This document shows, one piece after another, positions 458 through 8,932 of a stretch of DNA of 11,379 nt (positions are counted from its first letter, which is position 1; each line of letters starts with the position of its first letter). This DNA comes from a virus. The DNA lies in the UHGV virus genome UHGV-1549875; one strand, written 5' to 3'. The position numbers and the translations under genes are program-made. The notes below the pieces were generated by a model. It had not been told where the DNA came from. It ran no database searches and saw only the letters and a program-made list of their open reading frames with translations.

Positions 458-901
458 ATGGCACGCCCAACAAAGTATCAAGAGGCGTATGCCGAACAGG
501 CACGCAAACTGTGCTTGCTGGGCTACACCGATGCAGAACTTGCTGATTTCTTTGAAGTCAGTGAGTCAACTATTAACAAGTGGAAGCTTGATTATCCTAA
601 GTTTTCGGAGTCCATAAAAAAGGGTAAGGCCGTCGCTGATGCAGAAGTTAGTGATCGTCTTTATCAACGCGCTATGGGCTTCGTGGCTCCAGACATCGAT
701 ATTCGTGTTATTGAAAACAGAATTGTCGAAACTCCGCTTAAGAAGTATTACCCGCCTGATACAACTGCCGCCATCTTCTGGCTCAAGAACAGACAGAAAG
801 ATAAATGGCGAGAGAAGCAGGACGTCAACCATACATCTGATGACGGCTCCATGACTCCAAAAGCTCCAGTGTATAACATTGTAAAAAGCGAGACGCAATG
901 A
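458..901 (+). CDS. Terminase small subunit (DNA-recognition subunit), 147 aa
   Basis: Position directly upstream of and overlapping (ATGA at 898-901) the large terminase; size typical of small terminases; N-terminal region (ARPTKY...LGYTDAELADFFEVSESTINKWK) looks like a helix-turn-helix DNA-binding domain; basic, charged C-terminal half. Sequence is not the P22 gp3 type as I recall it. Confidence 0.78.
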   Translation: MARPTKYQEAYAEQARKLCLLGYTDAELADFFEVSESTINKWKLDYPKFSESIKKGKAVADAEVSDRLYQRAMGFVAPDIDIRVIENRIVETPLKKYYPPDTTAAIFWLKNRQKDKWREKQDVNHTSDDGSMTPKAPVYNIVKSETQ

Positions 902-2376
902 CAGAGCAATGCAGCATTCCTGAAGCGTTTGAGGAATACCTGCAGCCAGCCAGATTCAAGGTAGCTTATGGCGGGCGAGGTTCCGCCAAGACGCGAACGT
1001 TCATAACAATCCTCCTCAATAACGTCATCTATCACGGATGGAAGCTTATCTGTTTTCGTGAGTACATGAAGTCCATCAAGGAATCATGCTATGCGGAAAT
1101 TGTTGAAGAGATTAACCGCCGAAACCTCCACTCACTGGTGACTATCAATAAGACAGAGATATTTGCCAATAGCGGCGGACGTATCAGTTTCGACTTCCTG
1201 CGCCTTAACGTGGAAAATATCAAAGGTTACGCAAACTTCGATGCCGCCCTTGTAGAGGAAGCAGAAAACGTATCAAAGGACTCATGGGAAACGCTTATCC
1301 CAACGGTACGTAAAGAGTTCTACAGCGCTGAGTATGGTCGAGTGGTTGAGTCGGAAATATGGGTTGCATACAACCCGAAGAACAGACTCAGCGATACACA
1401 TCAGCGCTTTGTTACGAATCGCATATACCCCGACTATGACGAAAACGGTAATCGCTACTGCATCGTCAAGCAGATCAACTACACAGCTAATCCATGGTTC
1501 CCGGAAACTCTCCGCAGGGATATGGAGATTATGAAGAAGGCTAATCACGAGCTTTATCGGCATGTGTATCTTGGTGAACCGGTGGGGGCATCAGAAATGG
1601 CTATTATCAAGTTTGCATGGTTAGAGGCTGCAACAGACGCCCACATTAAGCTCGGATGGAAAGCTAAAGGTGCAGTGATTGCAGCGCATGACCCGTCAGA
1701 CACCGGCCCAGATGCCAAAGGATATGCAGTGCGACATGGATCAGTTGTTAAGCGCGTATGTGAAGGGCTGCTCATGGATATAAACGAGGGTGCTGATTGG
1801 GCATCTTCATTGGCGGTAATCGATGATGTTGATCATTTCCTGTTTGATGGAGATGGACTTGGAGCAGGGCTTCGTCGACAGATAACAGACTATTTCAGTG
1901 GAAAGAAAGTCACCGTAACAATGTTTAAAGGTAGTGAATCGCCATTCGACGAAGATGCTCCATATCAGGCTGGGGCATGGACTGATGAAGTTGTGCAGGG
2001 TGATAACGTCCGCACTATTGGAGATGTATTCCGAAACAAGCGAGCGCAGTTCTATTACACGCTGGCTGACAGGCTTTATCGAACATACCGGGCGGTTGTC
2101 CACGGTGAGTATGCAGACCCCGACGACATGCTGAGTTTCGACAAAGAAGCGATAGGCGAGAATATGCTGGAGAAGCTGTTTGCAGAACTGACGCAGATTC
2201 AGCGCAAATTCAATAACAACGGGAAGCTGGAGCTAATGACTAAGGTCGAAATGAAGCAGAAGCTCGGTATTCCATCTCCTAACCTGGCTGATGCGCTGAT
2301 GATGTGTATGCATTGCCCGGAGTCGGCTGCGCAACCCGACTATTCCAGTTACTCAATTCCTTGTGGTGTAGGTTGA
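898..2376 (+). CDS. Terminase large subunit (ATPase and nuclease), 492 aa
   Basis: Deviant Walker A near the N-terminus (YGGRGSAKT, about nt 970-993); Walker B-like hydrophobic stretch ending in acidic residues (FDAALVEEAE); C-terminal acidic segment (AAHDPSDTGPDAKGY) consistent with an RNase H-like nuclease domain; size and position between small terminase and portal as in P22 gene 2. Confidence 0.92.
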   Translation: MTEQCSIPEAFEEYLQPARFKVAYGGRGSAKTRTFITILLNNVIYHGWKLICFREYMKSIKESCYAEIVEEINRRNLHSLVTINKTEIFANSGGRISFDFLRLNVENIKGYANFDAALVEEAENVSKDSWETLIPTVRKEFYSAEYGRVVESEIWVAYNPKNRLSDTHQRFVTNRIYPDYDENGNRYCIVKQINYTANPWFPETLRRDMEIMKKANHELYRHVYLGEPVGASEMAIIKFAWLEAATDAHIKLGWKAKGAVIAAHDPSDTGPDAKGYAVRHGSVVKRVCEGLLMDINEGADWASSLAVIDDVDHFLFDGDGLGAGLRRQITDYFSGKKVTVTMFKGSESPFDEDAPYQAGAWTDEVVQGDNVRTIGDVFRNKRAQFYYTLADRLYRTYRAVVHGEYADPDDMLSFDKEAIGENMLEKLFAELTQIQRKFNNNGKLELMTKVEMKQKLGIPSPNLADALMMCMHCPESAAQPDYSSYSIPCGVG

Positions 2377-2377
2377 T

Positions 2378-4576
2378 ATGGCAGAAAAAAAGATGACTGA
2401 CTGGCATCGCAAGGTGCTGTGCAACTTTGATAATGCCTGGTCAGCAACGCAGGATATGCGTGAGCAGATTATTGAGGCTCAACGTTTCGTCCGGGTATCC
2501 GGCGCACAGTGGGAAGGCAGCACAAACGCTGGTTACTCATTTGATGAAGGCAGGTTTGAGCATTACCCGCGCTTTGAACTGAATAAGATTGCCCGTGAAT
2601 GTGATCGCATCATTGGCGAGTATCGACAGAATCGCATCAGCGTTAAATTCAGGCCGAAGGATGACAAGGCATCGGAAGCTTTAGCCGAAAAAATGAACGG
2701 AAAATTCCGCGCTGACTATCAGGAAACATCCGGTGGCGAAGCGTGTGATAACGCATTTGATGATGCCGTAACGGGTGGATTCGGTTGTTTCCGCATGTGT
2801 GCCGATTACGAAGATGAAATGGATCCGAGTAACGAGCAGCGACGCATCAGTCTTCTTCCTGTTTACGACCCGGCGACATGCGTTTTCTTCGATCAGGACA
2901 GCAAGCAATATGACCGCTCTGATGCTATGTGGGCTATGGAAATGTTCTCCATGACGCCTAAAGCGTTCGAGGCTGAATACCCTGATTCCATCGCGGCAAG
3001 CCTTTCTCGTGATGACACTGGCACTCAATATGACTGGTCAACGCCAGATGCCATCTATGTTGGTCGCTACTACGAAGTTCGCATAGAGAAGGTGAAGCTC
3101 ACGGCATGGCGCAACCCTGTTAGCGGAGAAACGGCAATCTATGATGAAGAGCAAATCAAAGATATTGTCGACGAGCTGACCGATGGCGCATTCGAACTGA
3201 TTGGTGAGCGGACAGTGAAGAAACGCAGAGTTTATTGCGGTCTTCTGTCTGGCGCTGAATGGCTGGAAGAACCGAAGCGTATTCCGGGCGAACACATTCC
3301 TCTCATCCCGGTATATGGGCGTCGCTCATTTGTTGATAATCAGGAGCGAATAGAAGGCCATGCAGCAAAAGCGATGGATGCACAGCGTCTTGAGAACCTG
3401 ATGGTTTCCATGATTGCAGATAACGCTACTCAGGCTGGCGGTGATGGCATTCCTGTAGTTGATGTTGACATGATTCCTGGTCCTCTTGCCACTCATTGGG
3501 CGGAGCGCAACAAAAAGCGCCCGGCGTTCCTGCCGATGGTCAGTCTGAAAAACAAAAACGGAGATATTACTGCGCAGGCTCAGGTCAGCAGTTATACACC
3601 TCCGACACAAATGCCGCCAGCTCTTGCCGGGCTATTGCAGTACACCGGAACGGCTATTCAGCAAATTACAGGTGCGTCGCAGCTTGAGAACATGCCGAGC
3701 AACGTCGCTACCGATACCGTTGATAGCATCTTTAACAGGATGGACACGCAGTCCTATATCTACATGGACAACATGGCTAAATCCATGCGTCGCGCTGGCG
3801 TTGTGTGGCTTTCTATGGCGCGTGAGGTCTATGGCAGTGATACGCCGATGCGTATCGTTAATGAGGACGGCAGCGATGACGTGGCGCTGATGACTGGTGA
3901 AGTGGTTGACCGTCAGACAGGGCAGGTTATCGCGCTTAATGACCTTTCGCAGGGCAACTATGAAGTGACTGTCGATGTCGGTCAGTCGTTCGCTACTCGC
4001 CGTGATGCAACGGTTAAGTCGTTACTTTCCATGCTGGCACTTATCCCACCAGGAACGCCGAAGCACGACCTTGTATCGTCGATGATTCTCGACAATATGG
4101 ACGGCGAAGGGATGGACGATCTGAAAGAATACAACCGCAATCAGTTGCTTCTGTCTGGCGTTATCAAGCCGAGAACGCCTGAAGAACAGCAGATGGTTGA
4201 GCAGGCGAAACAACAACAGGCCAGTCAGCAAGATCCGGCTATGGTTGCAGCGCAAGGTCAGCTTCTTGCAGGTCAGGCTGAATTGCAGAAAGCGCAGAAC
4301 GAACAGGCAGCCATTCAGGTTAAAGCATTCCAGGCACAGACTGATGCTCAGGTTGCAGCGGCAAACGTTGTGAAAATCCTCGCATCTGCCGATAGCCAGC
4401 AGAAATCTGATATCCGCGAGGCTCTGAAACTGCTCGGACAGTTCCAGCAACAGCAAGGAGACAATGCCCGTGCTGATGCAGAGCTTGTCCTGAAAAGTCA
4501 GGCACAGGGTCATGCGCAGCGCATGGACATCAGCAGCATCCTGCAAAAATCAACTCAGCAACAACCACAGCAGTAA
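2378..4576 (+). CDS. Portal protein (P22 gp1-like), 732 aa
   Basis: Size close to P22 portal (about 725 aa); recognisable similarity to my recollection of P22 gp1 in segments such as GEHIPLIPVYG, KKRRVY and the C-terminal PEEQQ...QDPAMV...AQGQLLAGQAELQKAQN...ARADAELVLK...QRMDI region; long Gln-rich helical C-terminus. Start at 2378 is 1 nt after the terminase TGA. Confidence 0.93.
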   Translation: MAEKKMTDWHRKVLCNFDNAWSATQDMREQIIEAQRFVRVSGAQWEGSTNAGYSFDEGRFEHYPRFELNKIARECDRIIGEYRQNRISVKFRPKDDKASEALAEKMNGKFRADYQETSGGEACDNAFDDAVTGGFGCFRMCADYEDEMDPSNEQRRISLLPVYDPATCVFFDQDSKQYDRSDAMWAMEMFSMTPKAFEAEYPDSIAASLSRDDTGTQYDWSTPDAIYVGRYYEVRIEKVKLTAWRNPVSGETAIYDEEQIKDIVDELTDGAFELIGERTVKKRRVYCGLLSGAEWLEEPKRIPGEHIPLIPVYGRRSFVDNQERIEGHAAKAMDAQRLENLMVSMIADNATQAGGDGIPVVDVDMIPGPLATHWAERNKKRPAFLPMVSLKNKNGDITAQAQVSSYTPPTQMPPALAGLLQYTGTAIQQITGASQLENMPSNVATDTVDSIFNRMDTQSYIYMDNMAKSMRRAGVVWLSMAREVYGSDTPMRIVNEDGSDDVALMTGEVVDRQTGQVIALNDLSQGNYEVTVDVGQSFATRRDATVKSLLSMLALIPPGTPKHDLVSSMILDNMDGEGMDDLKEYNRNQLLLSGVIKPRTPEEQQMVEQAKQQQASQQDPAMVAAQGQLLAGQAELQKAQNEQAAIQVKAFQAQTDAQVAAANVVKILASADSQQKSDIREALKLLGQFQQQQGDNARADAELVLKSQAQGHAQRMDISSILQKSTQQQPQQ

Positions 4577-4666
4577 TTAACCCATAACGTGCAATGGCTG
4601 TCTTTATGAGGCCTGGCACCCTATTGCCTTCCGATGGGCTGAACATCGAGTAAACAGGGGTAACAA

Positions 4667-5560
4667 ATGGACCAGATGGCAGAAAACACACCAGAAGTTG
4701 AAATCGAAACCGACGCGTCAGAGCAGATTCCTGATGATGTCGAACTGGCTGAAGAAGTCGAAACAGAAGATGGCAGTGAGTCCTCTGGCAATGATGCAGA
4801 GGAAGCTACTGAAACTGATGACGACGAATCAGAACAGGAATTCTACTTTGGTGACGAAAAGCTGGATTCGCCAACCAGCGAAGATAGCGCAGAGCATGGA
4901 CTGGTAAAACACCTGCGCAAGACGATTAAAGAGAAAGACCGCGAGCTGAAAGAGCTGATGCGTCAGTCTCAGAAACCCGTCGAGCAGCAGCCGGTAATCA
5001 CTCAACCACCGCGAATGCCAAAACTGGATGATGAGGACATCGGTTTCGATGAAGAAATCTACCAGCAACGCATGGCTAAGTGGGCAGAGGATAACGGCAA
5101 GTACCAGCAACAGGAGATGGCTCGCAAGCAGAAGGAGCAGGAGCTTCAGGCTGCCTATCAAGAGCGATTATCCAAATATCAGCAACGTGTTAAGGCTCTC
5201 AAAGTTCCTGGCTATCAGGAAGCAGAGCAGGCCGTACTCGAGGAAATCCCCATCGAGACACAAAACGCGATCCTGTTTGAGTCAGAGAAGCCGGAAATCG
5301 TTGTTCTGGCACTCGGTCGCAACGCTGAACTGCGCAAGCAACTGGCAGAAGCTACCAACCCCGTAGCAATTGGTCGTCTGCTGGAACGTATCGAATCGAA
5401 GGCCAGAATCATGCCAAAAGCAAAAACCACGGCAGCCACAACCCCGACAGTTAAGGGGAGCAACGGCGCAGTAATCAACAACCTCGACAAATTGAAAGCC
5501 AAGGCGCTGGAAACTGGTGACTGGACGCCGTATTTCGCCGCTAAAAAGGCAAAAAAATAA
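4667..5560 (+). CDS. Scaffolding protein (P22 gp8-like), 297 aa
   Basis: Between portal and coat genes; highly acidic N-terminal third; charged helical middle; C-terminal segment (PGYQEAE...LALGRNAELRKQLAEA...) resembles the helix-turn-helix coat-binding region of P22 gp8 as recalled; basic C-terminus (AKKAKK). AGGGG about 8 nt before the ATG. Confidence 0.85.
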   Translation: MDQMAENTPEVEIETDASEQIPDDVELAEEVETEDGSESSGNDAEEATETDDDESEQEFYFGDEKLDSPTSEDSAEHGLVKHLRKTIKEKDRELKELMRQSQKPVEQQPVITQPPRMPKLDDEDIGFDEEIYQQRMAKWAEDNGKYQQQEMARKQKEQELQAAYQERLSKYQQRVKALKVPGYQEAEQAVLEEIPIETQNAILFESEKPEIVVLALGRNAELRKQLAEATNPVAIGRLLERIESKARIMPKAKTTAATTPTVKGSNGAVINNLDKLKAKALETGDWTPYFAAKKAKK

Positions 5561-5578
5561 CCTATCGGAGCATTAAGC

Positions 5579-6832
5579 ATGGCTAACCAATTAGCAAAAG
5601 ACCTTGAAATCATGTTCGAAAACTACGTTGAAGGCTTTGAGGCCGCCTGCGTAGTTTCCCGTAACGCTAAAAAATTCCTTCCCGGTGATACAGCAATGCA
5701 GAGAGCAGGTGATGTTCTGTATCGTCCGCAGCATTACCACATGAACATTGAGGAAGGCCTCGACCTCAGCAGCAAAACGCCAACAGCACTGGTTCAGCGC
5801 CTTGTTCCTTCTGTGTTCAAGGAGCCGAAAAACATTCTGTACACTCTGGATGCGCGTGAAATGCGTGACCCGGAACATAAAACTGAAGCTGGTCGAGCCG
5901 CAGGTATGCGCCTTGCTGCACAGATTGACTCTGACCTGATTTCCATGGTCACGCAGCGTGCTACTAACGTGATCACAATGGCTGACTCAACCACTGGTTC
6001 ACAGGGCCGTGATTTGTGGAACTGTGCGGCAGGTATTGATGCCACCATGACGGCGATTGGTGTACCACAGGGTATCAACCGCCGCTCTTTCTGGAACCCC
6101 TTCAACTACAAAGACCTTGCTGGCGAGCTTGGTCACCGTGCCTATGCTCAGGGCGCAACCCTGACAGCATACGAAAAAGCGCAGATCCCTCCGGTTGCGT
6201 CCTTCGATAGCTACAAGACGGATATTTCTGGTCGTGTTCCGAAGGGTACAGCAACTTCCCTGACGCTGGCGGCTGAACCTGCGCACAAGGTTGAAGCGAA
6301 AGATGCCAACGATATGCCAGTGGATAACCGACAGGGGACTATTACGGTATCTGCATCTGGGTTGCAGGTTGGCGATGCGTTCACCATTGCTGGCGTGAAT
6401 TCTGTACACCAGATCACCAAAGACACCACCGGGCAGCCGCAGGTATTCCGCGTTCTGGCAGTAAGCGGAACGACAGTAACTATCTCCCCGAAAATTCTGC
6501 CGCCTGACAACGCGGATGTCGCCAGCCGACCATATGCAAACGTTGATGCTAACGCGGCAAATGGTGCAGCAATTACCATTCTCAACAAAAATGCCGCACC
6601 GGCTAACCTATTCTGGGCTGATGGTTCTGTTGAGCTGATGTACGGCAAACTGGCGTTCCCGACTGGTCAGGGTCCACAGGTAATGACAGCAACCACCGAG
6701 CAGGGCGCTACGCTGATCATGTCTTACGCCTTCGACCACATCAAAGGCGTAACCACTGCTCGTTTCACCACTCTGTATGGTTGCTCTGTACTTGTTCCTG
6801 AATATACGGGCATCGTTATTGCCGGGCAGTAA
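5579..6832 (+). CDS. Major capsid (coat) protein, 417 aa
   Basis: Immediately after the scaffolding gene with GGAG before the ATG; size in the range of P22-like coat proteins (HK97 fold with an inserted domain); followed by a strong stem-loop and T-tract as expected after a highly expressed capsid gene. Sequence differs from P22 gp5 as I recall it, so it may be another coat type (Sf6/CUS-3-like). Confidence 0.88.
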   Translation: MANQLAKDLEIMFENYVEGFEAACVVSRNAKKFLPGDTAMQRAGDVLYRPQHYHMNIEEGLDLSSKTPTALVQRLVPSVFKEPKNILYTLDAREMRDPEHKTEAGRAAGMRLAAQIDSDLISMVTQRATNVITMADSTTGSQGRDLWNCAAGIDATMTAIGVPQGINRRSFWNPFNYKDLAGELGHRAYAQGATLTAYEKAQIPPVASFDSYKTDISGRVPKGTATSLTLAAEPAHKVEAKDANDMPVDNRQGTITVSASGLQVGDAFTIAGVNSVHQITKDTTGQPQVFRVLAVSGTTVTISPKILPPDNADVASRPYANVDANAANGAAITILNKNAAPANLFWADGSVELMYGKLAFPTGQGPQVMTATTEQGATLIMSYAFDHIKGVTTARFTTLYGCSVLVPEYTGIVIAGQ

Positions 6833-6836
6833 TTTT

Positions 6837-6862
6837 GGTGGGGCTTCGGCCCCATTTTTATT
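6837..6862 (+). terminator. Putative rho-independent terminator or attenuator directly after the coat gene
   Basis: GC-rich hairpin GGGGC-TTCG-GCCCC (6840-6853; 5 G:C/C:G pairs, UUCG-type tetraloop), extendable by T:A and two G:U pairs to 6837-6856, followed by ATTTTTATT (6854-6862). Begins 5 nt after the coat stop. Confidence 0.65.
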
Positions 6863-6873
6863 GGGAGAAGACA

Positions 6874-7062
6874 ATGGCACGAACAATGCTCTATAAGCCG
6901 GGCAACATGATCACCTCTGGTCAGTTTGCTGTCGATTACATCATTGTTGATGACGAAGAAGTTAAATCTCACCTGAAAAAAGGCTGGGTAAAAACTCCTG
7001 AAGAAACCGCAACGAAGCAAAAAGTGGCTAAGGCGGAAGAAGATGGCGAAAACGAAGGGTGA
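6874..7062 (+). CDS. Hypothetical small protein (62 aa) between coat and gp4-like genes
   Basis: The track ORF 6835..7062 begins inside the terminator hairpin; the internal ATG at 6874 is preceded by GGGAGAAG (6863-6870), so I take 6874 as the start. Product MARTMLYKPG... has an acidic C-terminus (AEEDGENEG). Its 3' end overlaps the gp4-like start (7043) by 20 nt. Confidence 0.5.
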   Translation: MARTMLYKPGNMITSGQFAVDYIIVDDEEVKSHLKKGWVKTPEETATKQKVAKAEEDGENEG

Positions 7063-7504
7063 TCTCGTTCTTAAGGCTTTACGAAAAGCCGGGCTGTATT
7101 CCAATGCCACGTTGACAGATGCCGACCCTCAGGCAATTGAAGATGCCATTAATGACCTCGAAGACATGATGGCAGCATGGCAGGCGAAAGGTATCGAGCT
7201 TGGGTATCAGTTTGCTGATACAGAAAACGGCATCATGCCGTTGCCTGACGATGATTCAGGTATCCCTGCATGGGCAAATGATGGCGTCGCTTTGAAACTC
7301 GCTGTGCAAGTGTGCATGGATAACGTCATTCAGCCGTCAGACGCTCTCCTTACCGCTGCTGACAGTGCATATCAAACAATCTGTATCGCTTTAACCAAAA
7401 TACCACCACTTGAGCGGCGAGATGACATGCCTTGCGGTAGTGGTAACAAAAGCGCGTTTACGTGGAATCGGTTTTACATCGAGAAAGATGATCCGAGTAC
7501 GTGA
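7043..7504 (+). CDS. Head completion / tail accessory protein (P22 gp4-like), 153 aa
   Basis: N-terminal KTKGDLV...ALRKAGL...ATLTD...DLE.MMA.W and C-terminal MPCGSGN patterns match my recollection of P22 gp4; position after coat and before the gp10-like gene. Confidence 0.85.
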   Translation: MAKTKGDLVLKALRKAGLYSNATLTDADPQAIEDAINDLEDMMAAWQAKGIELGYQFADTENGIMPLPDDDSGIPAWANDGVALKLAVQVCMDNVIQPSDALLTAADSAYQTICIALTKIPPLERRDDMPCGSGNKSAFTWNRFYIEKDDPST

Positions 7505-7513
7505 GGTGAATAA

Positions 7514-8932
7514 ATGCCGATTCAGCAACTTCCGCTTATGAAAGGTGTCGGCAAAGACTTTCGAAACGCCGACTATATCGACTATCTGCCAGTGAATATG
7601 TTGGCTACACCCAAAGAAATCCTGAACAGCAGCGGATATCTTCGCTCATTCCCGGGCATTGCCAAACGTTCTGATGTGAATGGTGTATCTCGCGGTGTCG
7701 AGTACAACATGGCGCAGAGTGCTGTTTATCGCGTGTGTGGCGGCAAGCTGTATAAGGGCGAAAGCGAGGTCGGTGATGTTGCCGGAAGTGGTCGCGTATC
7801 AATGGCACACGGTAGGACATCACAGGCAGTAGGGGTTAACGGGAAACTGGTAGAGTATCGCTATGATGGCACGGTTAAAACCGTCTCAAACTGGCCTACA
7901 GACAGTGGATTCACTCAGTATGAGTTAGGCTCGGTCCGTGACATTACGCGCTTACGTGGGCGTTATGCGTGGTCAAAAGACGGCACGGATTCATGGTTTA
8001 TCACTGACCTTGAAGACGAATCGCATCCTGACCGCTACAGTGCACAATATCGTGCCGAGTCTCAGCCTGACGGCATCATCGGCATAGGTACATGGCGAGA
8101 CTTCATAGTCTGCTTTGGTTCGTCTACGATTGAATATTTCTCCCTGACAGGTGCAACCACCGTTGGTGCCGCTTTGTATGTTGCACAACCATCGCTGATG
8201 GTGCAGAAAGGTATTGCCGGGACTTACTGCAAAACGCCATTCGCTGATTCTTATGCGTTCATCAGCAATCCGGCAACGGGTGCGCCGTCTGTATACATCA
8301 TCGGCTCCGGTCAGGTATCACCAATCGCCAGCGCGAGCATTGAGAAAATTCTCCGCTCCTACACTGCTGATGAACTGGCTGATGGTGTGATGGAATCGCT
8401 GCGGTTTGATGCGCATGAGTTGCTGATTATCCATCTTCCGCGCCATGTACTCGTGTACGACGCATCTTCAAGTACCAATGGTCCGCAATGGTGTGCGCTG
8501 AAAACTGGACTGTATGACGATGTGTACCGCGCTATCGACTTTATTTACGAAGGCAATCAGATAACGTGCGGCGATAAGCTGGAGTCCGTGACCGGGAAAT
8601 TGCAATTCGACATCAGCAGCCAGTACGACAAGCAACAGGAACACCTGCTGTTTACTCCGTTGTTCAAAGCGGATAACGCCAGAGTGTTCGACCTTGAGGT
8701 TGAATCGTCAACTGGCGTTGCGCAGTACGCCGACCGCCTTTTTCTCTCTGCAACCACTGACGGCATCAATTACGGGCGTGAGCAGATGATTGAGCAGAAT
8801 GAACCGTTCGTTTACGACAAACGCGTTTTGTGGAAGCGAGTAGGGCGCATCAGGAAAAATGTCGGCTTCAAATTGCGCGTTATCACTAAGTCACCTGTCA
8901 CTCTCTCAGGCTGCCAGATAAGGATTGAGTAA
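7514..8932 (+). CDS. Tail hub / head completion protein (P22 gp10-like), 472 aa
   Basis: Same length as P22 gp10 (472 aa as I recall); sits between gp4-like and tail needle genes; GAGGTG before the ATG; stop overlaps the tail needle start (TAATG). Confidence 0.82.

Follow-up and report, generated by a model that had tools for sequence, protein, structure and literature searches.

Among phages of the P22 group, a stem-loop located directly behind the coat gene is already on record, since the GenBank entries of P22-pbi, HK620 and Sf6 each carry it as a feature, although under different descriptions:

P22-pbi, AF527608, 6102-6119: 'RNA stem-loop'
HK620, NC_002730, 25827-25853: terminator 'tGP5', 'consensus termination sequence following major capsid transcript'
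Sf6, NC_005344, 6147-6173: 't coat', 'stem-loop that is likely to be a transcription terminator'

The hairpin that is the subject of this analysis shares with these a stem of the GGGGC/GCCCC type that begins 4-5 nt past the coat stop codon, a loop of 4 nt and a T-run, as well as a position ahead of a small ORF (orf69 in P22, hkbT in HK620, gene 6 in Sf6) that overlaps gp4. It differs from them in its loop, which is UUCG here, UGCG in P22 and UUAC in HK620 and Sf6, in its flanks, and in that the coat gene beside it is of a different sequence type. On these sequence features it is the CUS-3/Sf101-type version of the P22-like 't-coat' stem-loop, and thus an ordinary element of a kind already known; the GenBank records of Sf101 and CUS-3 carry no annotation for the coat-end hairpin. 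In the genome paper of phage L, which unlike the phage considered here is a Salmonella P22-type phage, intra-operon terminators were predicted in silico within a late operon served by a single promoter, and two possible roles were offered for them, namely partial termination or the stopping of transcription that has started without antitermination (PMC8022706). The coat/orf69 junction is not discussed in the transcriptome paper on the P22-like prophage BTP1 (PMC7067206). A literature search for RNA-seq, Term-seq or Northern data at the junction of gene 5 and orf69 (coat and small ORF) found none for any P22-like phage.

When considered beyond this group, two further kinds of element are instructive. 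Hairpins inside an operon are known to stabilise the mRNA segment upstream of them, as is the case for the malE-malF REP elements, the papBA transcript and the Rhodobacter puf operon. The likeness to the present case lies in a stable hairpin that follows the gene for the most abundant product of a polycistronic message and in the differential stability of the segments, which for the phage would be part of the proposal made below; the difference is that these are cellular operons, and that the REP and puf hairpins have no U-tract. Terminators of phages form the second kind. The lambda terminator tR2 belongs to the nin region of the early right operon, and the factor that overcomes it is N rather than Q. 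It resembles the coat-end hairpin in having a G+C-rich stem followed by a UUUUUAUUUGG-type tail, whereas stem sequence and loop differ, and a homologue of it (AGGCCTGCTGGTAATCGCAGGCCT-TTTTATTTGG) is found in the ninA region of Sf101 (locus L097, 31697-31720). Termination at tR2 is about 0.9 efficient when unobstructed, and falls in vivo from about 90% to under 10% when the terminator is placed 5 bp past a stop codon, because the terminating ribosome blocks folding of the hairpin; uncoupling translation restored termination (PMC4824070). Finally, T7 has the terminator Tphi directly behind gene 10, which encodes the major capsid protein; RNA-seq coverage is highest within that gene and declines behind it (PMC6938266). 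Here the likeness is one of design, a terminator right after the capsid gene, and not of homology: Tphi acts on T7 RNA polymerase, and T7 lacks Q-type antitermination and possesses further promoters.

The coat-end hairpin and its late operon

The window, meaning the whole stretch of 11,379 nucleotides that was analysed, is taken to be the portion of a late operon that holds the structural genes, in a P22-like phage or prophage of the CUS-3/Sf101 type. This is indicated by its gene content (Pfam) and by an identity of 94-99% between positions 5579-7504 and a set of E. coli and Shigella phages, all of them Lederbergvirus or P22-like, among which are Sf101, JEP4, Kapi1 and CUS-3. The coat gene taken by itself is likewise 94-99% identical at the DNA level to the coat genes of Sf101, JEP4, Kapi1 and CUS-3. 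All large ORFs of the 11.4-kb window lie on the plus strand, and the features relevant to the argument are the following:

898-2376, plus strand: large terminase gene (Pfam)
2378-4576, plus strand: P22-type portal gene (Pfam)
4667-5560, plus strand: scaffolding gene, a 297-aa ORF (counterpart annotated in near-identical phages)
5579-6832, plus strand: coat (major capsid) gene, 417 aa (PF11651 P22_CoatProtein, E 1.8e-75)
6830-6832, plus strand: coat stop codon TAA (from the sequence)
6837-6856, plus strand: stem-loop GGUGGGGC-UUCG-GCCCCAUU, fold of -13.3 kcal/mol
6855-6862, plus strand: U-tract UUUUUAUU, 7 U in 8, overlapping in part with the two outer G-U pairs of the stem
6863-6867, plus strand: Shine-Dalgarno sequence GGGAG, with a 6-nt spacer (through 6873) before the ATG of the small ORF
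6874-7062, plus strand: small ORF, 62 aa (translation; an annotated CDS in Sf101 and CUS-3)
7043-7504, plus strand: gp4-type head-tail adaptor gene (PF11650 P22_Tail-4, E 3.8e-41)
7514-8932, plus strand: gene for a gp10-type stabilisation protein (PF11134)

The hairpin is situated, on the coding strand, in the 41-nt gap between the coat stop and the small ORF, and read in order the junction is TAA(6830-6832)-TTTT-GGTGGGGC-TTCG-GCCCCATT-TTTATT-GGGAGAAGACA-ATG(6874). Its core, GGGGC/GCCCC with the UUCG loop (6840-6853, 14 nt, GGGGCTTCGGCCCC), consists of five G-C/C-G pairs closed by a C(UUCG)G tetraloop, and one U-A and two G-U pairs on the outside lengthen the stem to 6837-6856, giving eight pairs in total. 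When its free energy is calculated, the 20-mer 6837-6856 folds at -13.3 kcal/mol, a stability reached by 0 of 200 shuffles, and the 14-nt core alone at -9.6 kcal/mol. The stem begins 4 nt past the coat stop, or 7 nt if the count is taken to the G+C core, and past the strong pairs the tract reads A-UUUUU-A-UU. The original prediction had placed a GGGGC-UUCG-GCCCC hairpin and a T-tract at 6837-6862, after the coat gene, with the next ribosome-binding site right behind the tract, and this anatomy is confirmed: 6862 is the end of the T-tract, and the GGGAG at 6863-6867 serves the 62-aa ORF. Given a G+C-rich stem within the usual range of about 5-14 pairs with a short loop (3-8 nt being usual), a U-tract directly 3' of it and a location past the stop codon on the transcribed strand, the hairpin and its T-run are, by architecture, a canonical Rho-independent terminator module on the strand of the late mRNA. 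A bidirectional terminator was also considered and rejected for the window, where the minus-strand tail is CCAAAAUUA and no U-tail is present. Rfam covariance models gave no match at gathering thresholds over the whole window, and within 6700-7000 only matches at chance level (E >= 0.75).

Transcription of the genes behind the hairpin would depend on what passes through it. A promoter scan returned no sigma-70-like promoter on the plus strand of the whole 11.4-kb window, hence none after the hairpin by which strong termination could be tolerated, and the essential genes gp4, gp10 and gp26, together with those for the ejection proteins, are all located 3' of it. Of these, the gp4 adaptor gene is the first to rely on read-through. 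In the 99%-identical Sf101, an antiterminator of the lambda Q family (PF03589, E 1e-57) is encoded upstream of the lysis and structural genes, and a PR'-like promoter and the lysis genes also precede the structural genes. The corresponding region lies outside the window, whose own late operon is assumed, by analogy with Sf101, to be Q-antiterminated too. It may be added that sigma-70-like matches are depleted in the window: both strands together hold 3, every one on the minus strand, while shuffles give 11.5 +/- 3.2, a depletion that would fit a long operon avoiding internal starts. A second structured signal was looked for in the 90-nt gap between portal and scaffold genes (4577-4666) and discarded, as the fold there is no better than that of shuffles (z = +0.95).

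How exceptional the hairpin is within the window depends on the yardstick. A strict scan, defined by a perfect stem of at least 5 pairs, a loop of 3-8 nt, a dG of -9 kcal/mol or lower and at least 5 T in 8, returned it as the sole match on both strands, and in a looser built-in terminator scan, which gave 17 sites against 10.9 expected, it ranked first; its earlier description as the clearest regulatory signal in the window is well founded in this sense. Dinucleotide shuffles of the window contain 1.42 strict matches at <= -9 kcal/mol and 0.19 at <= -13 kcal/mol, and wider folds around the hairpin reach z = -1.55 (56-nt context) and z = -0.86 (141-nt context). By window-only statistics the hairpin is not beyond chance, and since shuffles make one such hairpin in 11.4 kb unsurprising, the case does not rest on them. 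It is through its position and its recurrence in diverged relatives, as judged from comparison of the predicted hairpins, that it is far beyond chance.

Conservation within and beyond the CUS-3 type

Within the CUS-3 type, the comparison covered 80 IMG/VR loci found via the gp4 protein, plus Sf101 and CUS-3. The 41-nt gap occurs in seven variants among these loci, with stem core and T-run almost constant; the loop is UACG, another of the UNCG type, in two loci, and one locus shows a G-to-T change in the stem. Over 57 haplotypes, only 1 of the 24 sites in core and U-tract is polymorphic, compared with 65 of 144 third-codon positions in the 3' part of the coat gene (Fisher p = 6e-5), whereas the difference from the third-codon positions of the small ORF, which is itself low in diversity (10 of 55), is not significant (p = 0.16). 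Across the 57 distinct haplotypes, the eight U-tract sites 6855-6862 carry no polymorphism at all, and the Shine-Dalgarno sequence with its spacer (6863-6873) carries a single polymorphic site, G6863T. The coat-end hairpin is one of only two plus-strand terminator-like sites in the late operon of Sf101, the other one being found after the lysis cassette (AGCCTCGCATTTGCGGGGCT-TTTTTAC, L097 37359-37378).

The comparison was extended to 13 diverged loci obtained via gp4 homologues at 30-45% identity, and in 11 of them the strict scan found a plus-strand match 5-34 nt past the coat stop, with only 3 other plus-strand strict matches elsewhere in the 71 kb examined. This enrichment of predicted hairpins at one position is extreme even when it is allowed that the lineages are not independent. 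The phages concerned, arranged by the offset from stop to stem, are:

5-6 nt: P22, HK620, Sf6, NM-3, Louie
15-18 nt: APSE-3, Sortsne, Lumpael, Pseudomonas AH02
32-34 nt: C130_2, Skarpretter

Among the remaining loci of the 13, Sodalis phiSG1 has a GGGGC-GUAA-GCCCC hairpin with a weaker T-run, and in Ralstonia Firinga a hairpin occurs only after the next ORF. The stems vary by lineage, with GGGGC/GCCCC, GGGAGC/GCUCCC, GGGCGC/GUGCCC, GGGGCC/GGCCUC and GGGGAGCC/GGCUCCUC all represented. In an alignment of the 11 hairpins, 93.5% of cells are paired and two-sided changes affect 3 of 7 pairs, with none in slid controls, a covariation count that is partly circular because the hairpins were chosen by folding; their recurrence at one position is independent evidence. 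What characterises the P22-like 't-coat' is accordingly found here as well, namely a location between the coat gene and the small ORF, and a hairpin and T-run that are kept across lineages with diverged coat genes.

By the distance between stop codon and stem, the phages form two groups. A distance of 2-5 nt is seen in the window, P22, HK620, Sf6, NM-3, Louie, L028 and phiSG1 (by locus number, the window, L083, L084, L089, L095, L087, L028 and L086), and one of 14-33 nt in APSE-3, Sortsne, Lumpael, AH02, C130_2 and Skarpretter (in numerical order, L085, L088, L090, L091, L092 and L094), the latter group tending to longer T-runs. These two groups could relate to ribosome occlusion and to the use of Q-type antitermination. 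Two observations on individual phages may be recorded alongside. In AH02 (L092) the hairpin GGGGCCGAAAGGCCCC-TTTCTTTT lies at 1805-1820, within the stretch 1803-1830 and 18 nt past the coat stop, and the annotated start of 'gene 6' (1803), which is upstream of the hairpin and runs through it, is probably wrong. In Sortsne (L088, about 1869-1880) and Lumpael (L090, about 1913-1925), the sequence GGCTTATAC is common to both directly past the coat terminators, and could represent some conserved signal, for instance part of a promoter.

The small ORF behind the hairpin (6874-7062) holds the position of P22 orf69, HK620 hkbT and Sf6 gene 6, and could be aligned with its counterparts in P22, HK620, Sf6, APSE-3, NM-3 and Louie. 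No Pfam family matches it. Its overlap with the start of gp4 measures 20 nt in the window and stays within 17-26 nt in all phages examined other than Louie, a sign of possible translational coupling. The ORF is present in all Lederbergvirus-type loci examined, where it occurs in two sequence types, both with a G-W/F motif and a charged tail; counterparts lie at 2299-2508 in L083, 2326-2511 in L084, 2314-2505 in L085 and 2263-2511 in L087. The last of these, an 82-aa ORF of Louie, is apparently unannotated and overlaps gp4, as annotated, by 110 nt.

A swap of the coat cassette is also evident in this part of the operon. Across the scaffold gene (4600-5400), and again from gp4 on, the identity of loci L028 and L077 to the window is about 99-100%, but it falls to only about 50-75% over roughly the last 100 nt of the scaffold gene and the whole coat gene, the region concerned being about 5450-6856 in the window and about 900-2310 in the coordinates of the L028 and L077 loci. 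The end of the scaffold gene that is swapped together with the coat gene encodes the coat-binding C-terminus. In L077, identity with the window resumes exactly at the hairpin core GGGGCTTCGGCCCC; L028 has the same cassette and core, but its tail and the 5' end of its small ORF are different, and identity resumes only at about 7000.

A proposed leaky boundary and its alternatives

The explanation that we prefer, with a probability of roughly 0.6, is that the hairpin acts as a leaky boundary, at which partial termination and protection of 3' ends together raise the level of scaffold-coat mRNA over that of the downstream mRNA. The hairpin lies where the procapsid genes (portal, scaffold and coat) give way to the head-completion genes, inside a single late operon. 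A minority of polymerases would stop in the U-tract, and 3' ends would arise either by this termination or by endonuclease cutting in the A/U-rich tract, RNase E-type cleavage being a generally known source of such ends. The very stable UUCG hairpin would then shield these 3' ends from 3'-to-5' exonucleases, and the scaffold-coat segment of the message would accumulate above the downstream segment or outlast it. Most late transcription would nevertheless have to read through the hairpin, because the polymerase is presumed to be Q-modified, because essential genes follow without a promoter, and because the ribosome finishing the coat gene would hinder folding, being only 4-7 nt from the stem. 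Polymerase modified by Q is known to resist intrinsic terminators. We infer each of the three parts of this explanation, the partial termination, the 3'-end protection and the resulting expression ratio; should Q modification and ribosome occlusion suppress termination almost fully, the 3' end would need an endonuclease cut.

This is close to the role first suggested for the element, that of a terminator or partial attenuator and/or a 3' stabiliser favouring scaffold and coat, which is supported by its anatomy and by the annotation in HK620, Sf6 and P22. However, the hairpin alone cannot set the stoichiometry of the virion proteins, because portal and terminase, likewise low-copy proteins, are encoded upstream of it, and it would explain only the ratio of coat to downstream products.

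A role that is compatible with the leaky boundary, and not exclusive of it, is that of a fail-safe insulator. The hairpin would in this case act mainly on polymerases that are neither Q-modified nor followed by ribosomes, for instance those from spurious or internal starts in the prophage, and would keep the downstream virion genes silent in the lysogen with little effect on genuine late transcripts. Such a role is one of the two options given for phage L (PMC8022706), and agrees both with the four coding-strand start sites mapped inside the capsid cluster of prophage BTP1 (PMC7067206) and with the full activity that tR2 regained once translation was uncoupled (PMC4824070). Nevertheless, it leaves unexplained why the hairpin stands directly after the coat gene and not at other borders, and the window has no plus-strand sigma-70-like promoter upstream of the hairpin; we regard it as doubtful, while leaving it a certain weight.

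Efficient attenuation is the stronger form of the role first suggested: at least half of the late transcripts would terminate in the U-tract, and coat would be made in excess chiefly through this drop in transcription. The hairpin and U-tract look as good as those of tR2, which is efficient when unobstructed, and T7 does have such a terminator after its capsid gene (PMC6938266). Nonetheless, the stop codon stands 4 nt from the stem, and tR2 lost most of its activity at a distance of 5 bp (PMC4824070); moreover, Sf101, at 99% identity, has its late operon under Q antitermination, and gp4, gp10 and gp26 are encoded downstream with no promoter-like site to serve them. Efficient termination at the coat-end hairpin is therefore unlikely, and so is this account of the coat excess.

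The near-constant spacing of 2-5 nt between stop codon and stem in the Lederbergvirus-type phages, the first of the two spacing groups above, opens a further variant, in which the spacing is itself functional and the terminator is gated by translation. The terminator would be silent while ribosomes closely trail the polymerase through the coat gene, and would be switched on when coat translation lags or when transcription is uncoupled from it. We consider this improbable, to much the same degree as efficient attenuation.

It is also conceivable that the 14-nt core GGGGCTTCGGCCCC serves mainly as a short patch of homology for the exchange of modules between phages, as would be suggested by L077, whose diverged coat cassette meets sequence identical to the window precisely at the hairpin, by L028, with the same cassette and core and a different tail, and by the presence of the same core in NM-3 and C130_2. 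Yet one junction is anecdotal, and gene borders are where mosaic joints would be expected in any case. In addition, many lineages keep the hairpin with another sequence, something that exchange driven by homology does not require, and the T-run is kept too. Since the structure persists with other sequences and the T-run with it, it is the RNA signal that appears to be selected, and a recombination linker is very unlikely. A chance hairpin without function, for which one might invoke the 0.19 such sites expected per window shuffle at <= -13 kcal/mol, is refuted by the comparison, as the recurrence in 11 of 13 diverged loci, the compensatory stem changes and the low polymorphism leave it virtually no probability.

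For the biology of these phages, the consequences are modest. If the translation-gated variant were true, the dosage of the downstream genes would be tied to the translation of the coat gene. Capsid expression cassettes of the P22 type that include the hairpin would carry a built-in terminator and stabiliser. Beyond annotation the finding matters little; the element shows where the procapsid module ends and the head-completion module begins, and its annotation is due in genomes of the CUS-3/Sf101 type, as has been done in P22, HK620 and Sf6.
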